This document shows, piece after piece, positions 2,557 through 43,154 of a stretch of 64,000 bases of DNA; the stretch's first letter is position 1, and the number at the start of each line of letters is the position of its first letter. The notes under the pieces are model-generated. The model saw only the letters and a list, made by a program, of their open reading frames with translations. It was not told where the DNA came from and did no database searches. This stretch comes from Escherichia coli O157 typing phage 7. The stretch lies in sequence record KP869105; one strand, written 5' to 3'. Made by a program: the position numbers and the translations under genes.

Positions 2557-4103
2557 GTAACAATACATATCAGCACGTATCAAATGAATCAAAATACGTT
2601 AAATTCGATCCTGCAGGATCGAATTTTCCTGACACTGTCACGACAGTGCAGTCTGCATTATCAAAAATAAGTAATATCGGCGTAAATGGTATTCCTGATG
2701 CAACTATGGAAGTTAAAGGAATAGCAATGATTGCGTCAGAGCAAGAGGTTTTAGATGGAACTAATAATTCTAAAATCGTTACACCAGCTACATTAGCAAC
2801 AAGATTATTGTATCCAAATGCTACTGAAACTAAGTATGGTTTAACGCGCTATTCAACAAATGAAGAAACATTAGAAGGCTCAGATAATAATTCATCAATA
2901 ACGCCGCAAAAACTGAAATACCATACTGACGATGTGTTCCAAAATAGATATTCGTCTGAGTCATCAAACGGGGTTATTAAAATATCATCTACACCTGCAG
3001 CTTTAGCTGGAGTAGATGATACTACGGCAATGACTCCGCTAAAAACACAAAAACTTGCAATAAAATTAATTTCGCAAATAGCTCCTTCAGAAGACACAGC
3101 ATCAGAATCTGTTAGAGGCGTAGTTCAGTTATCAACTGTCGCTCAAACTCGTCAAGGAACTCTTCGCGAAGGATATGCAATTTCCCCGTATACCTTTATG
3201 AATTCTGTTGCAACACAAGAATATAAGGGTGTTATACGTTTAGGAACGCAATCGGAAATTAACAGTAATTTGGGAGATGTTGCTGTAACAGGTGAAACAT
3301 TAAATGGTCGAGGAGCTACCGGTTCTATGCGTGGGGTAGTAAAATTAACGACGCAAGCCGGTATTGCCCCTGAAGGTGATAGCTCTGGAGCATTAGCATG
3401 GAACGCAGATGTAATTAATACTCGCGGTGGACAAACTATTAATGGTTCTTTAAATTTAGATCATTTAACAGCAAATGGAATTTGGTCACGCGGCGGAATG
3501 TGGAAAAATGGCGATCAACCTGTTGCCACTGAAAGATATGCGTCCGAAAGGGTTCCAGTTGGAACTATTATGATGTTTGCTGGAGATTCAGCTCCTCCTG
3601 GTTGGATTATGTGCCATGGTGGAACTGTGTCAGGAGATCAATATCCTGATTATAGAAACACAGTTGGAACGAGATTTGGTGGCGATTGGAATAATCCTGG
3701 CATTCCTGATATGCGAGGTCTTTTCGTCAGAGGAGCTGGTACTGGTGGTCATATTTTAAATCAACGAGGGCAAGATGGTTACGGGAAGGATAGACTTGGT
3801 GTAGGATGTGACGGAATGCATGTTGGCGGTGTTCAAGCACAACAGATGTCATACCATAAACATGCTGGCGGTTGGGGAGAATACCAAAGACATGAAGCTC
3901 CATTTGGCGCGTCCGTTTATCAAGGATATCTTGGAACTAGAAAATATGCCGACTGGGATAATGCTTCATACTTCACTAATGATGGATTTGAATTAGGTGG
4001 ACCGAGAGATGCCCTTGGTACACTTAATCGTGAAGGATTAATTGGTTATGAAACTAGACCATGGAATATATCATTAAACTATATTATTAAAATTCATTAC
4101 TAA
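2553..4103 (+). CDS. 12: short tail fiber protein gp12
   Basis: 516 aa; ATGA overlap with gp11; N-terminus [29 protein letters not shown] as recalled for T4 gp12; follows gp11 and precedes wac. Confidence 0.9.
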
Positions 4104-33765: not shown

Positions 33766-33769
33766 CAAT

Positions 33770-33795
33770 GGGGACCGAAAGGTCCCCATATTTTT
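33770..33795. terminator. bidirectional hairpin terminator between gene 54 and the minus-strand early block
   Basis: GGGGACC-GAAA-GGTCCCC followed by ATATTTTTATTT. Confidence 0.65.
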
Positions 33796-34092: not shown

Positions 34093-34145
34093 CCTCATGT
34101 TATGTCAGTAAGACTACTATAACACAACATGAGGGACTTGTAAAC
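34093..34145 (-). promoter_or_regulatory. T4-type early promoter with stem-loop (PeSL-like cassette), copy A
   Basis: Minus strand: GTTTAC, 17 nt, TTATAG-type -10; 9-bp inverted repeat CCTCATGTT/AACATGAGG around the -10; GAGGA Shine-Dalgarno follows. Confidence 0.6.
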
Positions 34146-36202
34146 TACATTTTGAACTTTTTAGACATTCCGTTGATGTTAACCAAAGAAGCTAAGATTT
34201 GAGAAACTTCGTTTTCCTCTTCTTTTGATTCTTCTACAAGGAATTGATTAAATCCAGCCATTGGACGAACTTCACCAGTTTCCATTAGATGGTCGCCATC
34301 ATATACTGATTCTTCTAATTGTTCAGAAGGAGGAACGATTGTACCTTCGATTAGATACTTGTTATAAGCAGTTTCTTTCATAAAGTAAGTACTTACTTTA
34401 TTAATCTTCAGTAAAATTCCACGTGGTAGAATAACTTCAGCTTCTGATGGAAATCCTGACAAATGACCTGGAACGATAACTTTAACTCGTTCAGCTCCTT
34501 TAATTACCATACCCACGCTAGTTTCAGCATCTTCATTAGCATATGTAGAATGACTACCCATATGCATCAAATCTTCTGCATCAACGGAACCTTCTCCTTC
34601 ACCAGAAAATACTGCTCCGGAATTATCTAAGGCCATATAATTTTTACCATACTCACCAAAGATATTTGGTTTAAGTGATGTCGATACGAAGTTCTTGAAA
34701 TAGAACATTTTATTTTCAATGTTATGACGCAAAGTTTTAAAAGTAACTTCTTGTCCACGGTAAAGTGTAGTTCCTGGAGGAAGAACTGAACCTTTAGCGA
34801 ATGCAGAATCCAGCGTCTCAATATGTTTAATAGCTCGTTCCATATATTCTTCACGTGTAGAATCAGGTTTACCTAAAAGGAATGAGTTCATTTCAACATA
34901 CGAATCTGCGCAATAATCTTCAATTACATCAGACTCAGCCTGAGTCAATCCTTTTGGAGTTACTTCAGTGCTTGCATATTCATACGCCTGAGCAGCGGAT
35001 TCATCAATTAATTTATAAATGCCATTCATGACAAATTGAATAATAGCTGTCTTTTCATCTGGCGTAGCTTTAGAACCTTTAACTAAATCATTGACAATTT
35101 TCTTAATAACATCAAAGCTATTAGAAATATTAATGTCAGCAAGATCGCTTAAAATTTTATCAGTTTTATAATCAAAAAATTCTTTATTCTTTAAATATTC
35201 TTGAGAACTTTGATATGTTATATCGCTCTGCAACTTGATAGATGGATCACGTAAACGTGCATGGGCTAATGCAATATGATTTCGGAAGCTTTCTAGTTCA
35301 TAATCGTTAGATTTAAAACGAGAAGCACTTCTCATACCACCGATAGCTCCTTTGCTGAAGTTTGAACCAATCTGAATAACGCCAGAGTTCATTGGTCCTT
35401 CTGCTTTATATACCGGAACTTTAGATTCAAACTCTTGATATTTCTTAGCAGCGAAGCTATCACCCTGAAGTGAAGCATCAACAGTAGAATATTGAGCTTG
35501 TGCTGCTAATCGACGGCTAATTTTAGTTTTCTGAATAACAGCTTGATCCGTACGCTTATCATTTTCTAAAGCAATAGAAGCAGCAACTGCGACAGCTTTA
35601 GGAACAGCATTACCTGTTTTAACGTCTACATAAACATCACCAACCTTTGATTCAACTTTTGTGAATAACTCAGTTGAAATAGGAGGTACACCTGGAATGT
35701 CTTCTAAATTGGCATTTTTACGGTAAACCATAATATATGCATATTTCTTATCATAGTCCCAGATTTCCTTTAAAAGAACATATCGACCTGCTCCTTTAGT
35801 ACGTACTAAACGGTCAGCAATAACTTGCATTTGACGAGCAGCGCCGTTTGTTTTACTTTTTAGTACGCGGAATAGGCATGCATCAATTTTATACTGTTTC
35901 ATTGTTTGAAGAGCAGTATCAAAAACCGCATTAATGACGCCAATTGGATTTCCACCCAAGTTTTTAAGCTTAACTAACGATAATTTCTCGTTGACGCCTA
36001 TCATTACGATATGCATCATTTTGTCGCCTGGCTTAACGTTTTTATTCGTATCACCGCCAGAGGTGTATGTACAAAATCTAAATCCAGGAAGCACGCTTTC
36101 TTCACCGGCTTGAATAGCAAAAATTTGTGGTATTTTATGCTTAGGATTTAAGTTAACAACCGGCGCCGAAGCGCCGTCAAATAATTCTGTAATAAGTTCC
36201 AT
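34145..36202 (-). CDS. Alt-family ADP-ribosyltransferase, paralog A (candidate alt.-1)
   Basis: 685 aa; N-terminus MELITELFDGASAPVVNLNPKHKIPQIFAIQ parallels the upstream paralog; R-S-E ART motifs (LYRGQE, FVSTSL, SEAEVILPRG). Confidence 0.85.
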   Translation of the reverse strand: MELITELFDGASAPVVNLNPKHKIPQIFAIQAGEESVLPGFRFCTYTSGGDTNKNVKPGDKMMHIVMIGVNEKLSLVKLKNLGGNPIGVINAVFDTALQTMKQYKIDACLFRVLKSKTNGAARQMQVIADRLVRTKGAGRYVLLKEIWDYDKKYAYIMVYRKNANLEDIPGVPPISTELFTKVESKVGDVYVDVKTGNAVPKAVAVAASIALENDKRTDQAVIQKTKISRRLAAQAQYSTVDASLQGDSFAAKKYQEFESKVPVYKAEGPMNSGVIQIGSNFSKGAIGGMRSASRFKSNDYELESFRNHIALAHARLRDPSIKLQSDITYQSSQEYLKNKEFFDYKTDKILSDLADINISNSFDVIKKIVNDLVKGSKATPDEKTAIIQFVMNGIYKLIDESAAQAYEYASTEVTPKGLTQAESDVIEDYCADSYVEMNSFLLGKPDSTREEYMERAIKHIETLDSAFAKGSVLPPGTTLYRGQEVTFKTLRHNIENKMFYFKNFVSTSLKPNIFGEYGKNYMALDNSGAVFSGEGEGSVDAEDLMHMGSHSTYANEDAETSVGMVIKGAERVKVIVPGHLSGFPSEAEVILPRGILLKINKVSTYFMKETAYNKYLIEGTIVPPSEQLEESVYDGDHLMETGEVRPMAGFNQFLVEESKEEENEVSQILASLVNINGMSKKFKM

Positions 36203-36205
36203 GAT

Positions 36206-38302
36206 TTATCCTTGAACGAACTTGTAAGGCATGTTTGTAATATCTATGCAAGACGCAATAATTCCAAGAGATGATTCTACTTTCTGTTTAACATTTGATG
36301 AAACAAATGATGCAAAGTCAACTCTGTCTTCTATTTCAATATCACCTGTCATTGCAACCAATTCACCAGTTTCCATTAAATGGTCTCCGTCATAGATTAC
36401 CGATTCGGTGAGCTCTTCCGTGGTCATAACTTCAGCTTGAATGAGTTTTGTATTATTAGATGTTGTTCCGTCATTATTAGAAGCATCAGTTATTTTATTA
36501 ACTTTGACCATCAATCCACGCGGTAGAATAACTTCAGCTTCTGTTGCTATTCCGAGACTTCCTGGATATACAACATTAACTTTATGAGCTCCATCAATTG
36601 CCCATCCTATTTGAACTTTAACGTATTCAGGATTTTCTTTATACGCTCTTATTTCGTTTGGATTAATAGTTATTCCTTCTTCATTTTTATCAACTGTTAA
36701 TTCATTGCGAGCTTCTGGTTCTAAAAGACCAATACCAGCATGTGTGATTCCAAAACGTCCAAAAATGATAGGAGTTAAAGAAGTAGATACAAAATTTCTG
36801 AAGTAGAACACTTTATTTTTAACTAACGCTTCATATATAGGAGCAGTCATACTTTGAGCACGATAAACTGTGATGCCTTCCGGTATGCGGTCACCATTTT
36901 CAAAAGCTGAATCTAAGTTATTTATAGCAGATTCAATTTCTTTTTCACTCATTACATCATATCGTTCTGGATTGTAACGACCTAAAAGAAGATTATTGAT
37001 GTCAGTATATCCTGAACCGCAATATTCTCTAATGCCACGCTTTTGTGATGGAGTATATTTAGAACCATCGCGGGCAATAGTAATATCAATCATTGGACCA
37101 GCACCAATTCCAGAAAAACTGTAAATCATTCGTTTGAGGAATTTAGTTTTTGCTGCGTTCCAGGAATTTTTAGTTATTTCTTCCCAGACTTCATCTGGTT
37201 GTCCTTTACGATTTTTATTATGATTAGCAAGCCATTTATCTTTATAATCTTCAAAGAATTGATTTACAGCTGCTGCGTATTTCTCTAAACATTTTATTGA
37301 AGTAGTTGGTTCATTTTTAATTGCATTAAAAATTACTTCTTTAATTTTTTCTGAAACTTCACCGACTTGACTCATTGGAAAGAATTTATAATCATAGTGA
37401 AGTTCATCTGCCGTTCCTTCAGCAATAATTTTTGCTGCCTTTGTTTTAGAAGCTAATGAATTAATTCCAATTTTCATTTCTTCTGCTTCGGGAATTAAAG
37501 GTGCAGTAGCTGGTTTATTAAAATTAGCTGCTGTAGATTCATACTTCTGGAATAATTCACTTTCAAATCTAGAAGATTCCAATGACTGACTTTGTGCAAT
37601 TGCTCTACGGGAAATTTTAACTTTAACGATTACGGCTTGGTCAGAACGTTTATCATTTTCTTGTGCAATAGATGCAGCAATTGCCTCATTTTTGGTTACT
37701 TGAGCTCCAGTATCTTTATTGATATAAACATCACCGACCTTCGATTCAACTTTAGTAAAGAGCTCGGTGCTAATTTCTGGAACTCCTGGAATGTCTTCTA
37801 GTGATACATTTTTACGATGTATAAGAATATATGCATACTTTTTATCGTAATCCCAGAGTTCCTTAAGAAGGACGTATCTGCCACCTGAACGACTACGGAT
37901 AAGTCTATCAGCAATAACTTGAATTTGTCGAGCTTGGCCAGCAGTTTTAGACTTAAGAATACGAAGCATACAAGCATCAATTTTATATTGACGCATTGTT
38001 TGCATTGCAACAGTAAAAACTGAATTGATATAATTAATTGGGCTTGGACCAAGACCTTTTAATTTAGCAATTGAACCTTTAGCAGTTAATGTAAAAGGAA
38101 CAATGTGCATCATTTTGTCGCCCATTTTTAAATCGCGATTAGTATCACCTCCAGATGTATATGTACATAAACGAAAGCCTGGTTGTTCAATTGCATCATC
38201 AACATGAACTGAAAAAATTTGTGGTATTTTCTTCTTTGGATTTAAGTTTGTAATCGGAAGAGTAGTATCTTCGTCAAATAATTCTGTAATAAGTTCCATC
38301 AT
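36206..38302 (-). CDS. alt: Alt ADP-ribosyltransferase (packaged, modifies host RNA polymerase in T4)
   Basis: 698 aa from first ATG (second ATG at 38299); N-terminus MELITELFDEDTTLPITNL as recalled for T4 Alt; R-S-E motifs (VYRAQS, FVSTSL, TEAEVILPRG); late promoter box upstream. Confidence 0.9.
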   Translation of the reverse strand: MMELITELFDEDTTLPITNLNPKKKIPQIFSVHVDDAIEQPGFRLCTYTSGGDTNRDLKMGDKMMHIVPFTLTAKGSIAKLKGLGPSPINYINSVFTVAMQTMRQYKIDACMLRILKSKTAGQARQIQVIADRLIRSRSGGRYVLLKELWDYDKKYAYILIHRKNVSLEDIPGVPEISTELFTKVESKVGDVYINKDTGAQVTKNEAIAASIAQENDKRSDQAVIVKVKISRRAIAQSQSLESSRFESELFQKYESTAANFNKPATAPLIPEAEEMKIGINSLASKTKAAKIIAEGTADELHYDYKFFPMSQVGEVSEKIKEVIFNAIKNEPTTSIKCLEKYAAAVNQFFEDYKDKWLANHNKNRKGQPDEVWEEITKNSWNAAKTKFLKRMIYSFSGIGAGPMIDITIARDGSKYTPSQKRGIREYCGSGYTDINNLLLGRYNPERYDVMSEKEIESAINNLDSAFENGDRIPEGITVYRAQSMTAPIYEALVKNKVFYFRNFVSTSLTPIIFGRFGITHAGIGLLEPEARNELTVDKNEEGITINPNEIRAYKENPEYVKVQIGWAIDGAHKVNVVYPGSLGIATEAEVILPRGLMVKVNKITDASNNDGTTSNNTKLIQAEVMTTEELTESVIYDGDHLMETGELVAMTGDIEIEDRVDFASFVSSNVKQKVESSLGIIASCIDITNMPYKFVQG

Positions 38303-38322: not shown

Positions 38323-38330
38323 TATTTATA
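38323..38330 (-). promoter_or_regulatory. T4 late promoter box on minus strand (alt)
   Basis: Plus-strand TATTTATA about 20 nt upstream of the alt start. Confidence 0.6.
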
Positions 38331-38351
38331 AAATTAAAGGCCCGAAGGCCT

Positions 38352-38540
38352 TTAGTAATCTAGTGGTAAGAGAGTACGATATATTTCAAACTTTGGTCCT
38401 TTTTCATAGGCATCAAATGTTTCTGTAAATTTATTGTAAGCATATGCATCTACAAATTCGAGAATGACTTGTGATACAGAAGTAGAAACATCTCCACCTT
38501 CTTTTTGAGCAATGACAATTGTTTCTAAGTAAGCTTTCAT
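38352..38540 (-). CDS. hypothetical small protein
   Basis: 62 aa; start overlaps DNA ligase stop (ATGA). Confidence 0.5.
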   Translation of the reverse strand: MKAYLETIVIAQKEGGDVSTSVSQVILEFVDAYAYNKFTETFDAYEKGPKFEIYRTLLPLDY

Positions 38541-40000
38541 AAACCAGTTACCTCATGAAAATCGCCAAATACATCCTCGAATGTATTAGCTTTAGTTTTA
38601 TCTTCACGTAAACGAATCGCAATCGGAAGAAATAATTTAACGTAATCAGTGCGGCCATCAGATTTTAACCAACCGTTGCATTCGCACTCTAGAATTTTTC
38701 CAATATAATAATTTTGGTTTTCCATAATGCGAGTACGGTCAAGTTCATGCGATTTTACACCAGCTTTATCTTTTAAGCCTGAACCAGCATTTACTTTAAT
38801 TTTTCCACACTCTGACTCAAGAATAAATCCACCCGCTTTAGTAGGGTCTTTACGGTGAGGATAAATTCCTACAATTTTTAAATCAACATCAATTACTTCT
38901 TTAAATTTATAAAGATTTTTTGAACGAGCATTTTCCCATAATCCATCGATATTTTTGAGAATAATACCTTCAAGACCTTGGTCAATATACTTTTTATAAA
39001 TTACCTTAGCTTCATCTAGGTTATTTACTACCTGGTTTTCAATTAAAATTACTTTATCATAACCTGATGTCATTTGTTCTAGTTTAGAAAAACGTACATC
39101 ATATTTCAAACGAAATGCAGGAAGACCGTATATTTCTACCAACGGGACATAATCCCAGACCTGAAACTTCATGCATTGAGCTTCTTTTTCAGAAATGGTT
39201 CCCTTTAAAGATTTATTAGCGATTCCATTAGAAGTAGTACGTGATTCAGCTACTTCGGCGAATTCTTTAGCTTTACTAATTTCAGGATAAGCATCAAAAA
39301 GAAAATCTAGGCCTTCTGGTTCCTTTTCAACTTGCTCATGGTATACCAATTCGCCATCAATTAACACACCTTCTGGATGAATCTGGCGAGCTTCTGCAGT
39401 CATTTTGATTAACTCTTCCTTGAGAAGATCTAATCCTAGATATTCATTACCAGCTCGTGATAAAAGACGAACATCATCTAATTCATCACCTCTGACTTCA
39501 GCAAAGCACCGAGCTCCATCAGCTTTTAACTGCGCAAAAGCTGGAAACTTGATATTCTTACTAATGCCTTTTTCATCATAAGAACTTGCCAGCATTTGAG
39601 GTTGTTCAGGAATTAAACCTGGCCAAACTTTGTTTGCAATAGATACTGAAGCACCGCATTCAAGGTCTCGCATCATCACCCGACGCAAAACTTCAACATC
39701 ATCTTTTTTACCGTCAGCAATATATCCAGTTAATTCCTCAATTGCCGCATTTCCGGTCAATTTCCGAGTAGCTAACGTGAATTCAATGAAGTCAAGCATA
39801 TCGGTAAGAGTCAACATTCCAAAACTCTGGGTAGCAATACCAGGTTTAGGCCATTTCTTGATATAATACTGTAACCCACGAGAATAAGTCAGACGATATA
39901 CTCGTTTAAGCAATTCATTATCTTTATTCTTTTCAAGAATTGCTTGCTTCTGCTTAGTTGAACCAATAGATGCTATTTCGTTCAGAATTTTAAGAATCAT
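38537..40000 (-). CDS. 30: ATP-dependent DNA ligase gp30
   Basis: 487 aa as in T4 ligase; adenylation motif KADGAR. Confidence 0.95.
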   Translation of the reverse strand: MILKILNEIASIGSTKQKQAILEKNKDNELLKRVYRLTYSRGLQYYIKKWPKPGIATQSFGMLTLTDMLDFIEFTLATRKLTGNAAIEELTGYIADGKKDDVEVLRRVMMRDLECGASVSIANKVWPGLIPEQPQMLASSYDEKGISKNIKFPAFAQLKADGARCFAEVRGDELDDVRLLSRAGNEYLGLDLLKEELIKMTAEARQIHPEGVLIDGELVYHEQVEKEPEGLDFLFDAYPEISKAKEFAEVAESRTTSNGIANKSLKGTISEKEAQCMKFQVWDYVPLVEIYGLPAFRLKYDVRFSKLEQMTSGYDKVILIENQVVNNLDEAKVIYKKYIDQGLEGIILKNIDGLWENARSKNLYKFKEVIDVDLKIVGIYPHRKDPTKAGGFILESECGKIKVNAGSGLKDKAGVKSHELDRTRIMENQNYYIGKILECECNGWLKSDGRTDYVKLFLPIAIRLREDKTKANTFEDVFGDFHEVTGL

Positions 40001-40266
40001 TGTTCATCCTTTAGAGTTTGGTTTACAGCTCTATTATAAATCAATTCATCATTAAGCTCAGTCAAAGACTTGTGGTACGTGGTTCTAACTTTATTTCCTT
40101 GCATCCAGTGCTTGACGTAAATGAAACCTTGCTCTACACATTTTTTAAAAATTCGTTCGTCTTTTTGAGCTCGGAATTCTGGATTGCATCTAAAAAATTG
40201 ATTTACGTGACCGTAATCACGTGTAGTATTACCTTCATTTTCATAAATAGTATGAACAACAAACAT
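39997..40266 (-). CDS. hypothetical protein (30.1 position)
   Basis: 89 aa; ATGA-coupled between 30.2-position ORF and ligase. Confidence 0.6.
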   Translation of the reverse strand: MFVVHTIYENEGNTTRDYGHVNQFFRCNPEFRAQKDERIFKKCVEQGFIYVKHWMQGNKVRTTYHKSLTELNDELIYNRAVNQTLKDEQ

Positions 40267-41102
40267 TAGAATGCTCCTTGGAAAATATTATCACCACTAG
40301 TAGGTCTATTATACAAATACTCTATGCCACCGGGTTTAATATAGTTCCATGTCTGAAACGGATGCGTCTGATATGGATGATATAGATTATAAGGATTAAA
40401 TCCAGGAGTTCTCCAGGTAGTGTTCCAAGGAAAAGAATCGTTTTTAATCATCTTTTCAATTACATCTTTTATAGCTTTTTCACTATCAAAACTTTCTTTA
40501 TTTTCCTTCGATGGAAAAAGCTTATTCTCTACATCATTCCATGTATAAACTCGCTGCGCAGTTTTTGGAATACTGTCACGCTCCCCTCGAGCCATCCAAT
40601 AAACAGGAACATTTAATATTTCACTCGCGTGATCGCAGTGGTGAGCGAGATCGTCAATATAACAAATTACGTTATATTTCTCTTTTGCCTTTTTGAACAA
40701 CTCTTCTTTTGAAGAATCATGACCACACATCAATACTTCTGAGAAGGCACCAGGAAAAAGAGCATTCAAATTAAATTGACGATTTAGCAGAGCGTCAATA
40801 GAATCACCCAATGCTGTAACAGCTACAAAATTATAATCTTCTTTTAATTTGTTAATTACACACAGGGCATCTTTATACGGAGACAAGTAACGAATAAAAT
40901 CTGAACGATTATACTTTTCGATTAATTTAACACCAAGTTCTTCATCGCAATTAAAGAGCTTACCAGGAGAAATAAATTTTTCGTCCTGAATCATTTTTAA
41001 AATATGTTCCAACGGAAGATTATATTTTTGGGCAAAATAAGGAAGGCCCGATTGCCAGCTTAAACACACCCCGTCAATATCAGTCAAAATAGTAGGCTTC
41101 AT
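40266..41102 (-). CDS. HAD-like hydrolase-fold protein (30.2 position)
   Basis: 278 aa; N-terminal LTDIDGV (HAD motif I-like DxDG) and later YIDD. Confidence 0.6.
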   Translation of the reverse strand: MKPTILTDIDGVCLSWQSGLPYFAQKYNLPLEHILKMIQDEKFISPGKLFNCDEELGVKLIEKYNRSDFIRYLSPYKDALCVINKLKEDYNFVAVTALGDSIDALLNRQFNLNALFPGAFSEVLMCGHDSSKEELFKKAKEKYNVICYIDDLAHHCDHASEILNVPVYWMARGERDSIPKTAQRVYTWNDVENKLFPSKENKESFDSEKAIKDVIEKMIKNDSFPWNTTWRTPGFNPYNLYHPYQTHPFQTWNYIKPGGIEYLYNRPTSGDNIFQGAF

Positions 41103-41563
41103 AGAGAGTCTCTTAATAGGTTTAACACATCAATAAATTCAGCTTCGGTTAGTATTGTATCATCTTTTGTTAGACCACTAGCCATGCTATGCTTCAAAAC
41201 TTTTCCTTTCGAGGCTAGTAATGCATCACGAAAGCCCTTGTTTTGAATCGCTGCTTCAAAATATGCATTTGTGTACAACTCTTTCCACGCTGGTGAGTAT
41301 CTTGAAAACGGAACTCCAAGCCAGAAGAGGGTCCCACGGTCCTGAGCTCTTGCATAAGACCTTCCAGCTTGTTGGGCGGCAAGTCCGGATAACCCAAATA
41401 TACGTCTTTGCTGCTCAACATTTTTCACCTTGCACCCTTGGAGAAATCCTTCAAGACCTCCAAATTGGATACCATCCATAACAAAAGGCCATTGAGCGAA
41501 ATTACTTAATGCACACGATGGCCATCTAAAATTGCTTCTAATCTCTAACTCAGGCATTTTCAA
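41099..41563 (-). CDS. NADAR/YbiA-like (DUF1768) protein (30.3 position)
   Basis: 154 aa; segment FRWPSCALSNFAQWPFVMDGIQFGGLEGFLQGCKV resembles the SNF...WP...DG core of E. coli YbiA-family proteins as I recall it. Confidence 0.6.
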   Translation of the reverse strand: MKMPELEIRSNFRWPSCALSNFAQWPFVMDGIQFGGLEGFLQGCKVKNVEQQRRIFGLSGLAAQQAGRSYARAQDRGTLFWLGVPFSRYSPAWKELYTNAYFEAAIQNKGFRDALLASKGKVLKHSMASGLTKDDTILTEAEFIDVLNLLRDSL

Positions 41564-41756
41564 TGCTTATAATTTCAACATCAGCCCAATGACCATAGCA
41601 AGGAAGACGAAATTCAACTGGCCAGTTAGGGTCCTTTTCTAATATAATAGACTTAACTTGTGGTTCTTCATGTTCATCAGTATATGGATTTTTATCTGTT
41701 ACTTTATATGTGACCTTAATGTACTGAATTCCAAAAATCTTATTAATTATATTCAT
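41550..41756 (-). CDS. hypothetical small protein
   Basis: 68 aa, overlapping neighbours by a few nt. Confidence 0.5.
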   Translation of the reverse strand: MNIINKIFGIQYIKVTYKVTDKNPYTDEHEEPQVKSIILEKDPNWPVEFRLPCYGHWADVEIISIENA

Positions 41757-41950
41757 ACTAATTCCTTTAATCCGTAAATAGGAGATAATTCATCACCCAT
41801 ACGAAGGTCTTCATTTCCATCTACCCAGGAAACAATATAAGCCTCTTTTATTTGAACACCACTCCATTTAAATGGAGGTAGAACCTTAGAAATTAATCCA
41901 GGTATACCAACTCCCTTTAATTCAACAGTTTGACCTAAAAAGAATTTCAT
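41753..41950 (-). CDS. hypothetical small protein
   Basis: 65 aa, ATGA-coupled. Confidence 0.5.
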   Translation of the reverse strand: MKFFLGQTVELKGVGIPGLISKVLPPFKWSGVQIKEAYIVSWVDGNEDLRMGDELSPIYGLKELV

Positions 41951-42237
41951 CAGAACCTCATCTGAAAGCCATGTGATTTAACATTACCGCCGCCAATATC
42001 AGAAATATTAATTTCACGCGCAATTGAAGGGTCAATGTCAATTTCACGATTAAGTTTAGCGATAGCTAAAGTATCACGCCCATTTACTGTACGGAATTCT
42101 AAAGGACAAACCACATCAACATAATTTTTAATCGATTCACTGGTAGGTTGCAAATGAGCAGGAAGGTCTTTAGGCGCCTTAGAGAAAACAACTTCACAGA
42201 AATTTTTGCGGGTATCAAAATAAGTAGTCATAAACAT
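41950..42237 (-). CDS. hypothetical protein
   Basis: Track ORF (to 42288) trimmed to ATG at about 42237 (MFMTTYFDT...), preceded by GAGGAAA; the longer form would read through a GC hairpin. Confidence 0.5.
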   Translation of the reverse strand: MFMTTYFDTRKNFCEVVFSKAPKDLPAHLQPTSESIKNYVDVVCPLEFRTVNGRDTLAIAKLNREIDIDPSIAREINISDIGGGNVKSHGFQMRF

Positions 42238-42252
42238 AGTATTTTCCTCAGT

Positions 42253-42268
42253 AAGGGGCCGAAGCCCC
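42253..42268 (-). other. intergenic GC stem-loop
   Basis: AGGGGC-CGAA-GCCCCT between two small ORFs, just upstream of a GAGGAAA ribosome binding site. Confidence 0.4.
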
Positions 42269-42277
42269 TGTTTTATT

Positions 42278-42643
42278 TTAAATATCAAATTCGTTAAGAA
42301 CTACATCAAAGATTGCTTCAAGATGCTCAGGTTTAGCTCTGTTACTCAGAATATGACGAATCCAAGTTTTAACCAAAAGCTTGCGATTATCACCATTCCA
42401 GCAAGGATGAGTCCCTAAATCGCGTTGACGAAAATCATCATCCAGAGCGATTTTGAAGTTTGAACCTTCCATTGTGATTGAAACCGTGATGCCATTTTCA
42501 AATCGCATATAAACGTAGTTAGGAGTCATATACTGTTCAATTTCGCATACTGATCCATTTTGATGTTTCCAAAGGCAGATAGTATCAATAGAACCTGCAA
42601 TACCATTAGAAACATATTTACGTTCAAAGTTGATGTAGTTCAT
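42278..42643 (-). CDS. hypothetical protein
   Basis: 121 aa; early promoter/stem-loop upstream. Confidence 0.55.
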   Translation of the reverse strand: MNYINFERKYVSNGIAGSIDTICLWKHQNGSVCEIEQYMTPNYVYMRFENGITVSITMEGSNFKIALDDDFRQRDLGTHPCWNGDNRKLLVKTWIRHILSNRAKPEHLEAIFDVVLNEFDI

Positions 42644-42669: not shown

Positions 42670-42709
42670 GGTACAGGTATATAATATCATATCCTGTACC
42701 AAAGTAAAC
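42670..42709 (-). promoter_or_regulatory. T4-type early promoter with stem-loop
   Basis: Minus strand: GTTTAC, 17 nt, TATTAT; inverted repeat GGTACAGG/CCTGTACC flanks the -10. Confidence 0.5.
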
Positions 42710-43070: not shown

Positions 43071-43110
43071 AATACTATCACAAAGGAACCATACTGTAAA
43101 CAACTTTGTG
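43071..43110 (-). promoter_or_regulatory. T4-type early promoter with stem-loop
   Basis: Minus strand: GTTTAC, 17 nt, ATAGTATTAT; inverted repeat CACAAAG/CTTTGTG. Confidence 0.5.
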
Positions 43111-43118
43111 CAATCTTT

Positions 43119-43150
43119 GGAAAATAAAAAAGGACTCCCGAAGGAGTCCT
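43119..43150 (-). terminator. intrinsic terminator after the basic small protein gene
   Basis: AGGACTCC-CGAA-GGAGTCCT hairpin with T-run on the minus strand. Confidence 0.6.
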
Positions 43151-43154
43151 CAAC

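Follow-up and report, generated by a model that had tools for sequence, protein, structure and literature searches.

Gene 30.3 of a wV7-type Tequatrovirus is very probably an orthologue of T4 adfN, coding for a stand-alone NADAR-fold DNA ADP-ribosylglycohydrolase

Gene 30.3 and its boundaries

We analyzed a stretch of 64,000 nucleotides from Escherichia coli O157 typing phage 7 (sequence record KP869105; the whole stretch is hereafter the window, and positions are counted from its first letter), focusing on gene 30.3, an open reading frame (ORF) whose counterpart in phage T4 has been renamed adfN. Positions 40000-42400 match Escherichia phage wV7 (Tequatrovirus, T4-like) at 100% identity. The RefSeq record of wV7 labels the ORF gp30.3, with 152 amino acids (aa) from an ATG (window 41099..41557, minus strand), and gene 30.3 of T4 (NP_049816) also codes for 152 aa; in the wV7 and T4 records (RefSeq, GenBank) the product is still a 'hypothetical protein'. 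An initial annotation of this DNA had called a 154-aa ORF at 41099..41563 (minus strand), counted from a TTG, and had quoted from it the string FRWPSCALSNFAQWPFVMDGIQFGGLEGFLQGCKV as NADAR/YbiA-like; the string is present exactly as quoted, beginning at residue 10 in ATG numbering, and the ORF is a genuine gene on which purifying selection acts. The features of the gene are the following:

41099..41557, minus strand: coding sequence of adfN (gene 30.3), very probably a NADAR-fold DNA ADP-ribosylglycohydrolase of 152 aa
41558..41563, minus strand: two extra codons (TTG AAA) of the earlier ORF, probably not translated into protein
41450..41452, minus strand: codon GAA of catalytic Glu36, aligning with the Glu of YbiA 'SEHYF'
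41429..41431, minus strand: codon AAG of catalytic Lys43, aligning with the Lys of YbiA 'AQKF'
41189..41191, minus strand: codon CAT of His123, adjoining model strand 120-122
41105..41146, minus strand: C-terminal helix, residues 138-151 of the AlphaFold2 model, intact in wV7

The frame of the 154-aa ORF was kept, whereas its start was revised: translation most likely begins at the ATG at 41557 and not at the TTG at 41563, a choice for which the sequence alone is not decisive. The ATG was preferred because it is the RefSeq start in both wV7 and T4, because it overlaps the stop codon of gene 30.4 (ATGCCTGA), and because E36 and K43, the catalytic residues reported in the literature, land on Glu and Lys under ATG numbering only. 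At its other end, the 30.3 stop overlaps the 30.2 start (ATGA). We are highly confident that this ORF is the orthologue of T4 adfN, a stand-alone NADAR-fold hydrolase of 152 aa.

Family, fold and active site

The protein matched PF08010 (Phage_30_3) with E=2.7e-70, scoring 235 bits (cut-off 36) and covering model positions 1-138 of 138. In PHROGs it belongs to a family of unknown function, PHROG 652, whose profile has 296 positions and is matched by the ORF at 128-272; from this profile length, longer relatives exist. None of the PADLOC defence models matched the ORF. Homologues were collected (n=114), and 70 full-length sequences were aligned, this alignment being used for the profile, the conservation analysis and the structure model. 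The 70-sequence profile reached E. coli YbiA (2B3W) with E=0.0059, with E36 and K43 aligned to the Glu and Lys of YbiA, and PF08719 (NADAR) was matched individually by 27 of the 70, the more distant homologues (E<=1; best E=1.5e-7). The AlphaFold2 model built on the same alignment had a mean predicted local distance difference test (pLDDT) score of 93.3 and a predicted template modelling (pTM) score of 0.89, and by this model and the profile the ORF clearly has the alpha+beta NADAR fold.

The catalytic Glu and Lys of the NADAR segment E-G-F-x-Q-x-x-K are both present in the wV7 copy; across the 70 homologues neither E36 nor H123 varies, and conservation of K43 is at least 90%. At the catalytic position of the last beta-strand, YbiA has Glu, BC4488/DarG1 have Asp and gp30.3 NADARs have His (PMC11125620), and His123 is a clade-specific replacement of the acidic catalytic residue on that strand. 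The predicted fold and active site of gp30.3 are thus those of NADAR proteins, as the initial annotation had guessed from motifs, and the sequence models place it in a sister family, outside PF08719. It is not a member of the YbiA family (TIGR02464), since it carries His123 instead of the last-strand Glu and scores under the cut-off; E. coli YbiA (PDB 2B3W), which has that Glu, shares about 20% sequence identity with AdfN. YbiA itself has been tied to an N-glycosidase activity on riboflavin intermediates and to a LexA-controlled operon (PMC11125620, PMC9503650).

Conservation and comparison with the T4 copy

The gp30.3 proteins of wV7 and T4 are identical at 149 of 152 residues (98%, over 152/152 residues), and the three wV7-to-T4 substitutions, P2S, L114Q and M125I, fall at none of the conserved catalytic positions; 19 of the 22 nucleotide differences between the two genes are synonymous and 3 non-synonymous. 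Homologues of gp30.3 were found in 1,510 phage records, 1,504 of them covering at least 80% of the protein. By its near-identity, the 30.4-30.3-30.2 synteny and its full length including the C-terminal helix, the wV7 copy belongs to AdfN, the T-even gp30.3 orthologue group. T4 AdfN has the same length, and its gene likewise overlaps with 30.4 on the upstream side and with 30.2 on the downstream side; it has E36/K43/H123, the intact C-terminal helix, and promoter and terminator landmarks in common with wV7. It differs in that three residues are substituted in the wV7 protein and that activity is known for the T4 protein only.

Decay does happen in this family, the RB69 copy being frameshifted (PMC11825919), and the ORF might on that ground be read as a decayed, functionless gene, or even as a chance open frame. 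The wV7 copy, however, is full length and nearly identical to the active T4 protein, its synonymous to non-synonymous ratio is 19:3, nearly all of the phage records cover at least 80% of the protein, and the structure model is confident; we give this reading no weight, as the pattern of sequence conservation already refutes it.

Inside adfN lies a further ORF, 30.3' (window 41215..41421, minus strand), annotated in T4 as 'internal translation in a different reading frame'. Within this overlap, each of the 11 nucleotide differences between wV7 and T4 is silent in 30.3 but changes the amino acid in 30.3', and the wV7 ORF ends 7 codons sooner than that of T4 (68 vs 75 aa). It was rejected as a second product of the locus for want of sequence constraint, and is probably not a functional protein-coding gene.

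Function of AdfN

The ability of T-even phages to withstand DarTG1 was mapped to 30.3, which was then renamed adfN (Johannesman et al., Nat Commun 2025, PMC11825919). Deletions in T4 and T2 showed that the gene is required, and its sufficiency was shown by the rescue of RB69, whose own copy is frameshifted, 15 residues short and devoid of the terminal helix; the truncation in RB69 goes together with sensitivity to DarTG1, and T4 AdfN is less active when truncated (PMC11825919). Furthermore, the mutations E36A and K43A weaken T4 AdfN, the purified protein strips ADP-ribose from DarT1-modified DNA in dot blots, and it is powerless against DarTG2, which ADP-ribosylates thymidine (PMC11825919). 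In vitro, a phage gp30.3 NADAR hydrolyzed guanosine-linked but not thymidine-linked ADP-ribose (PMC11125620). Independent confirmation came from a T4 transposon screen, in which 30.3 was non-essential on K-12, with 27 of 28 sites hit (HIDEN-SEQ preprint); in the portion of its DarTG1 table that runs alphabetically from gene '26' to 'rnlA', to which all statements on that table made here refer, 30.3 insertions vanish under DarTG1 (log2 fold change (log2FC) -7.25, adjusted p 0). The proposal of the initial annotation that the gene might counter host ADP-ribosylating defences has therefore been borne out experimentally for the 98%-identical T4 protein (PMC11825919, HIDEN-SEQ preprint). By analogy, wV7 AdfN can safely be expected to act like the T4 protein, as its three substitutions lie outside the catalytic residues.

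According to the proposed mechanism, in a cell that carries the toxin-antitoxin defence DarTG1 and is infected by a T-even phage, the toxin DarT1 ADP-ribosylates guanine in single-stranded phage DNA, and replication is blocked; AdfN, made from an early transcript, would cut the N-glycosidic bond between ADP-ribose and guanine by means of the Glu36/Lys43 pair and the clade-specific His123, and the DNA so restored would allow replication. AdfN would act as an 'orphan antitoxin', having the fold and reaction of the DarG1 antitoxin without a toxin partner.

Several points weigh against this interpretation, some concerning the family and others the activity. The wV7 protein has no PF08719 match at E<=10 and does not reach the Pfam gathering threshold; TIGR02464 (YbiA-type) gave E=0.17 over residues 16-52, with 12.2 bits against a cut-off of 73.7; and a single-sequence phmmer search against PDB sequences returned a chance match (3RJZ, E=0.37) and nothing relevant. 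The initial annotation had named the Pfam NADAR/DUF1768 profile as its check, and taken literally that check speaks against the NADAR assignment; we set it aside because of the profile and fold evidence given above. As His stands in place of the acidic catalytic residue, the substrate range could differ from that of other NADARs. T4 AdfN failed to relieve the toxicity of DarT1 in uninfected E. coli (PMC11125620); it is fully active only during T-even infection and gives weak help to non-T-even phages (PMC11825919), so its mechanism in vivo needs something more. Finally, the construct described as 'E. coli T4 phage NADAR (gp30.3)' in Toxins 2024 (PMC11125620) comprises residues 1-208, vs a protein of 152 aa.

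Transcriptional layout and the Alt genes

The neighboring genes and the putative transcription signals are as follows:

41550..41756, minus strand: gene 30.4, directly upstream of adfN, its stop overlapping the adfN start
40266..41102, minus strand: gene 30.2, directly downstream of adfN (ATGA overlap), with a HAD-superfamily phosphatase fold
34145..36202 and 36206..38299, minus strand: two tandem Alt-like ADP-ribosyltransferase (ART) genes, outside the adfN unit (PF03496, E=9.8e-38 and 6.9e-20)
38354..38335, minus strand: terminator-like hairpin AAAGGCC-TTCG-GGCCTTT with a T-rich tail, overlapping the alt.1 stop, conserved in T4
38330..38323, minus strand: T4 late-promoter box TATAAATA, about 20 nucleotides upstream of the Shine-Dalgarno sequence (GAGG) and ATG of the first alt gene, conserved in T4
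43151..43130, minus strand: terminator before the 30.8 promoter-like site, annotated in the wV7 record
43072..43100, minus strand: early-type promoter-like site GTTTACA-17-TAGTAT upstream of 30.8, a consensus match only, with one spacer substitution in T4
42681..42708, minus strand: second early-type promoter-like site GTTTACT-16-TATTAT, upstream of 30.7, identical in T4

The initial annotation had placed the ART genes upstream of the ORF; all of these genes lie on the minus strand, and in the direction of transcription the ART genes are downstream of 30.3, separated from it by 30.2, 30.1, gene 30 (ligase) and alt.1. It had also put them in the same early operon, a claim that does not hold, given the hairpin and late promoter that intervene and the timing of the T4 genes: published T4 time courses class the transcripts 30.4-30.7, 30.3, 30.2, 30.1, 30 and alt.1 as early and alt as late, the Alt product being packaged into virions (published T4 time courses and the T4 record). 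Judging from sequence, the hairpin at 38354..38335 would separate the early unit that includes adfN from the alt genes, and the site at 42681..42708 is the likely source of an early transcript from 30.7 to alt.1, including adfN. A sigma-70 promoter scan showed no enrichment (44 found vs 51 expected from shuffles), and the early-promoter assignments therefore rest on the GTTTAC form, the position and the conservation in T4.

In more distant phages the arrangement with Alt is not kept. Aeromonas phage phiAS5 and Acinetobacter phage vB_AbaM_3014 carry the Alt-like gene on the strand opposite to the gp30.3 homologue, and in Klebsiella phage Roth27 and Rhizobium phage RL38J1 it was absent within 6 kb of that homologue; the same-strand order 30.3, 30.2 homologue, DNA ligase is kept in the three Straboviridae phages among them. 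The neighborhood of adfN and Alt, on which a context remark had been made earlier (PMC9503650), is T4-type synteny and not a functional or transcriptional pair.

As for the Alt-like genes themselves, both are full length in wV7. The first is a mosaic, 71% identical to T4 Alt overall, nearly the same at its N- and C-terminal ends and diverged in its middle, catalytic part. The second is 41% identical to T4 Alt, and its place is taken in T4 by alt.-1/alt.-2, the remnants of a decayed duplicate.

Alternative roles for AdfN

The initial annotation had further described the locus as a writer plus eraser neighborhood, in which AdfN would be co-expressed with the Alt ADP-ribosyltransferases and would reverse or limit their protein ADP-ribosylation, as a control of self-modification. 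The same strand does carry two Alt-like ART genes at a distance of 2.8 kb, and the dependence of full T4 AdfN activity on T-even infection implies that some T-even factor matters. Against this stand the hairpin and late promoter that set alt apart, the late expression of T4 alt vs the early 30.3 RNA, and the lack of conserved linkage in the four distant phages. Genetic interaction under DarTG1 is lacking as well: in the HIDEN-SEQ table, T4 insertions in alt (log2FC -0.01), modA (+0.11) and modB (+0.13) are neutral, as are those in alt.1 and alt.-1/-2/-3. Moreover, 30.3 is dispensable on K-12 despite active Alt, ModA and ModB there, and the substrates assayed for NADARs were guanine adducts in DNA, thymidine adducts being left uncleaved. 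The pairing of AdfN with Alt is consequently largely refuted, and we give it next to no credence.

A weak match to TIGR02464 would also fit an N-glycosidase of the YbiA kind whose main substrates are riboflavin intermediates, or low-molecular-weight immune signals derived from NAD or ADP-ribose, and not DNA adducts. We regard this as very improbable, since the T4 orthologue de-ADP-ribosylates DNA in vitro and has a DarTG1-specific phenotype, and since the last-strand Glu that defines YbiA is His in AdfN; a secondary activity on small molecules may exist. There is likewise a slim chance that T-even AdfN has a second, phage-internal job, e.g., clearing ADP-ribose adducts that the Alt-family enzymes of the phage itself put on nucleic acids, for which the diverged second Alt paralogue, intact in wV7 and lost in T4, is one candidate source. 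The T4 data (no cost of 30.3 loss on K-12, no alt phenotype under DarTG1) leave this idea standing because T4 lacks the second paralogue; if true, wV7-type phages would have a real writer/eraser pair. DNA de-ADP-ribosylation against DarT1 remains by far the favored role of AdfN.

Candidate co-factors of AdfN

The product of 30.2 was examined because T4 AdfN needs a T-even factor and because 30.2 is translationally coupled to adfN. It has no Pfam match, retains the four HAD phosphatase motifs (D8-x-D10-G11, T96, K132 and D150-D151), and its profile has a weak match in a 5'(3')-deoxyribonucleotidase (2JAO, E=0.066). As a required co-factor gp30.2 was rejected, T4 30.2 insertions being neutral under DarTG1 (log2FC -0.12, p 0.61; HIDEN-SEQ preprint), and Alt, ModA and ModB were rejected on the same ground; as far as the table portion extends, the screen argues against each of the four as a single required co-factor.

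The sole other gene with a significant DarTG1 dependence in that portion is 30.4, whose insertions are mildly depleted (log2FC -1.79, adjusted p 0.014; HIDEN-SEQ preprint). This depletion is likely due to polarity on adfN, as the 30.4 stop and the adfN start overlap, an arrangement whose sequence suggests translational coupling, and 30.4 may also make a genuine contribution.

Comparison with other known systems

The adfN locus is not a DarTG1 system: its neighbors are 30.4 and the HAD-like 30.2, and they carry no ART domain. Compared with the DarG1/DarT1-associated NADAR antitoxins (BC4488 family; Geobacter lovleyi NADAR, PDB 8BAT), AdfN is an orphan with no adjacent DarT gene, begins directly at the NADAR core without an N-terminal extension, and has His123 where they have the last-strand Asp; the T4 protein, unlike the DarG1-type antitoxins, does not protect uninfected cells from DarT1 toxicity. 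The NADARs AdfN-Bas32 and AdfN-Bas60, from T5-like phages and Vequintavirinae, resemble it in being phage-borne orphans that neutralize DarTG1 and are specific for guanine adducts, but they belong to other NADAR clades, were acquired independently and are active without T-even infection (PMC11825919). AdfM (T4 Tk.4) is comparable in being a phage copy of an antitoxin hydrolase domain used in counter-defence (HIDEN-SEQ preprint); it differs in being a macrodomain, of unrelated fold, and in countering DarTG2, which modifies thymidine. The removal of ADP-ribose from DNA by AdfM was proposed by the preprint authors by analogy with AdfN (HIDEN-SEQ preprint).

Additional observations in the window and in related phages

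Between the ligase gene and alt lies alt.1 (window 38352..38540, minus strand), which matched PF24647, 'Phage blade protein', with E=1.9e-29, and whose stop is inside the hairpin. Elsewhere, a perfect hairpin with a 9-bp stem (ATGGGGACC-GAAA-GGTCCCCAT, window 33768..33789) scores as a terminator on both strands and is located where alt.-3 (minus strand) and gene 54 (tail tube, plus strand) converge.

Around the NADAR genes of other phages, Acinetobacter phage vB_AbaM_3014 has an annotated putative ADP-ribose pyrophosphatase (positions 2913..3440 of its locus, L003, plus strand) that shares a co-directional cluster with the NADAR gene and lies about 2.5 kb upstream of it; as placed there, this enzyme could dispose of ADP-ribose freed by NADAR. 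T4 nudE was neutral under DarTG1 (HIDEN-SEQ preprint). In Klebsiella phage Roth27, two tRNA genes sit in the corresponding stretch from gene 31 to the NADAR gene, together with an acb2 gene annotated as anti-CBASS (positions 2682..2972 of its locus, L006, plus strand), and this content suggests that the variable stretch gathers counter-defence genes in T4-like phages.

Implications

The function of gene 30.3 as AdfN is already known, having been published in 2024-2025. The NADAR-like call, made from motifs for a gene labeled hypothetical, was right, and its chief value is as a calibration. The annotation can be upgraded to AdfN, an anti-DarT1 DNA ADP-ribosylglycohydrolase, in many phage records, 1,510 of which were matched here. 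The gene also touches on the question of which T-even factor renders AdfN fully active in vivo. As to the biology of these phages, AdfN represents a case in which a phage has borrowed the enzyme of an antitoxin to undo a DNA-modifying defence.
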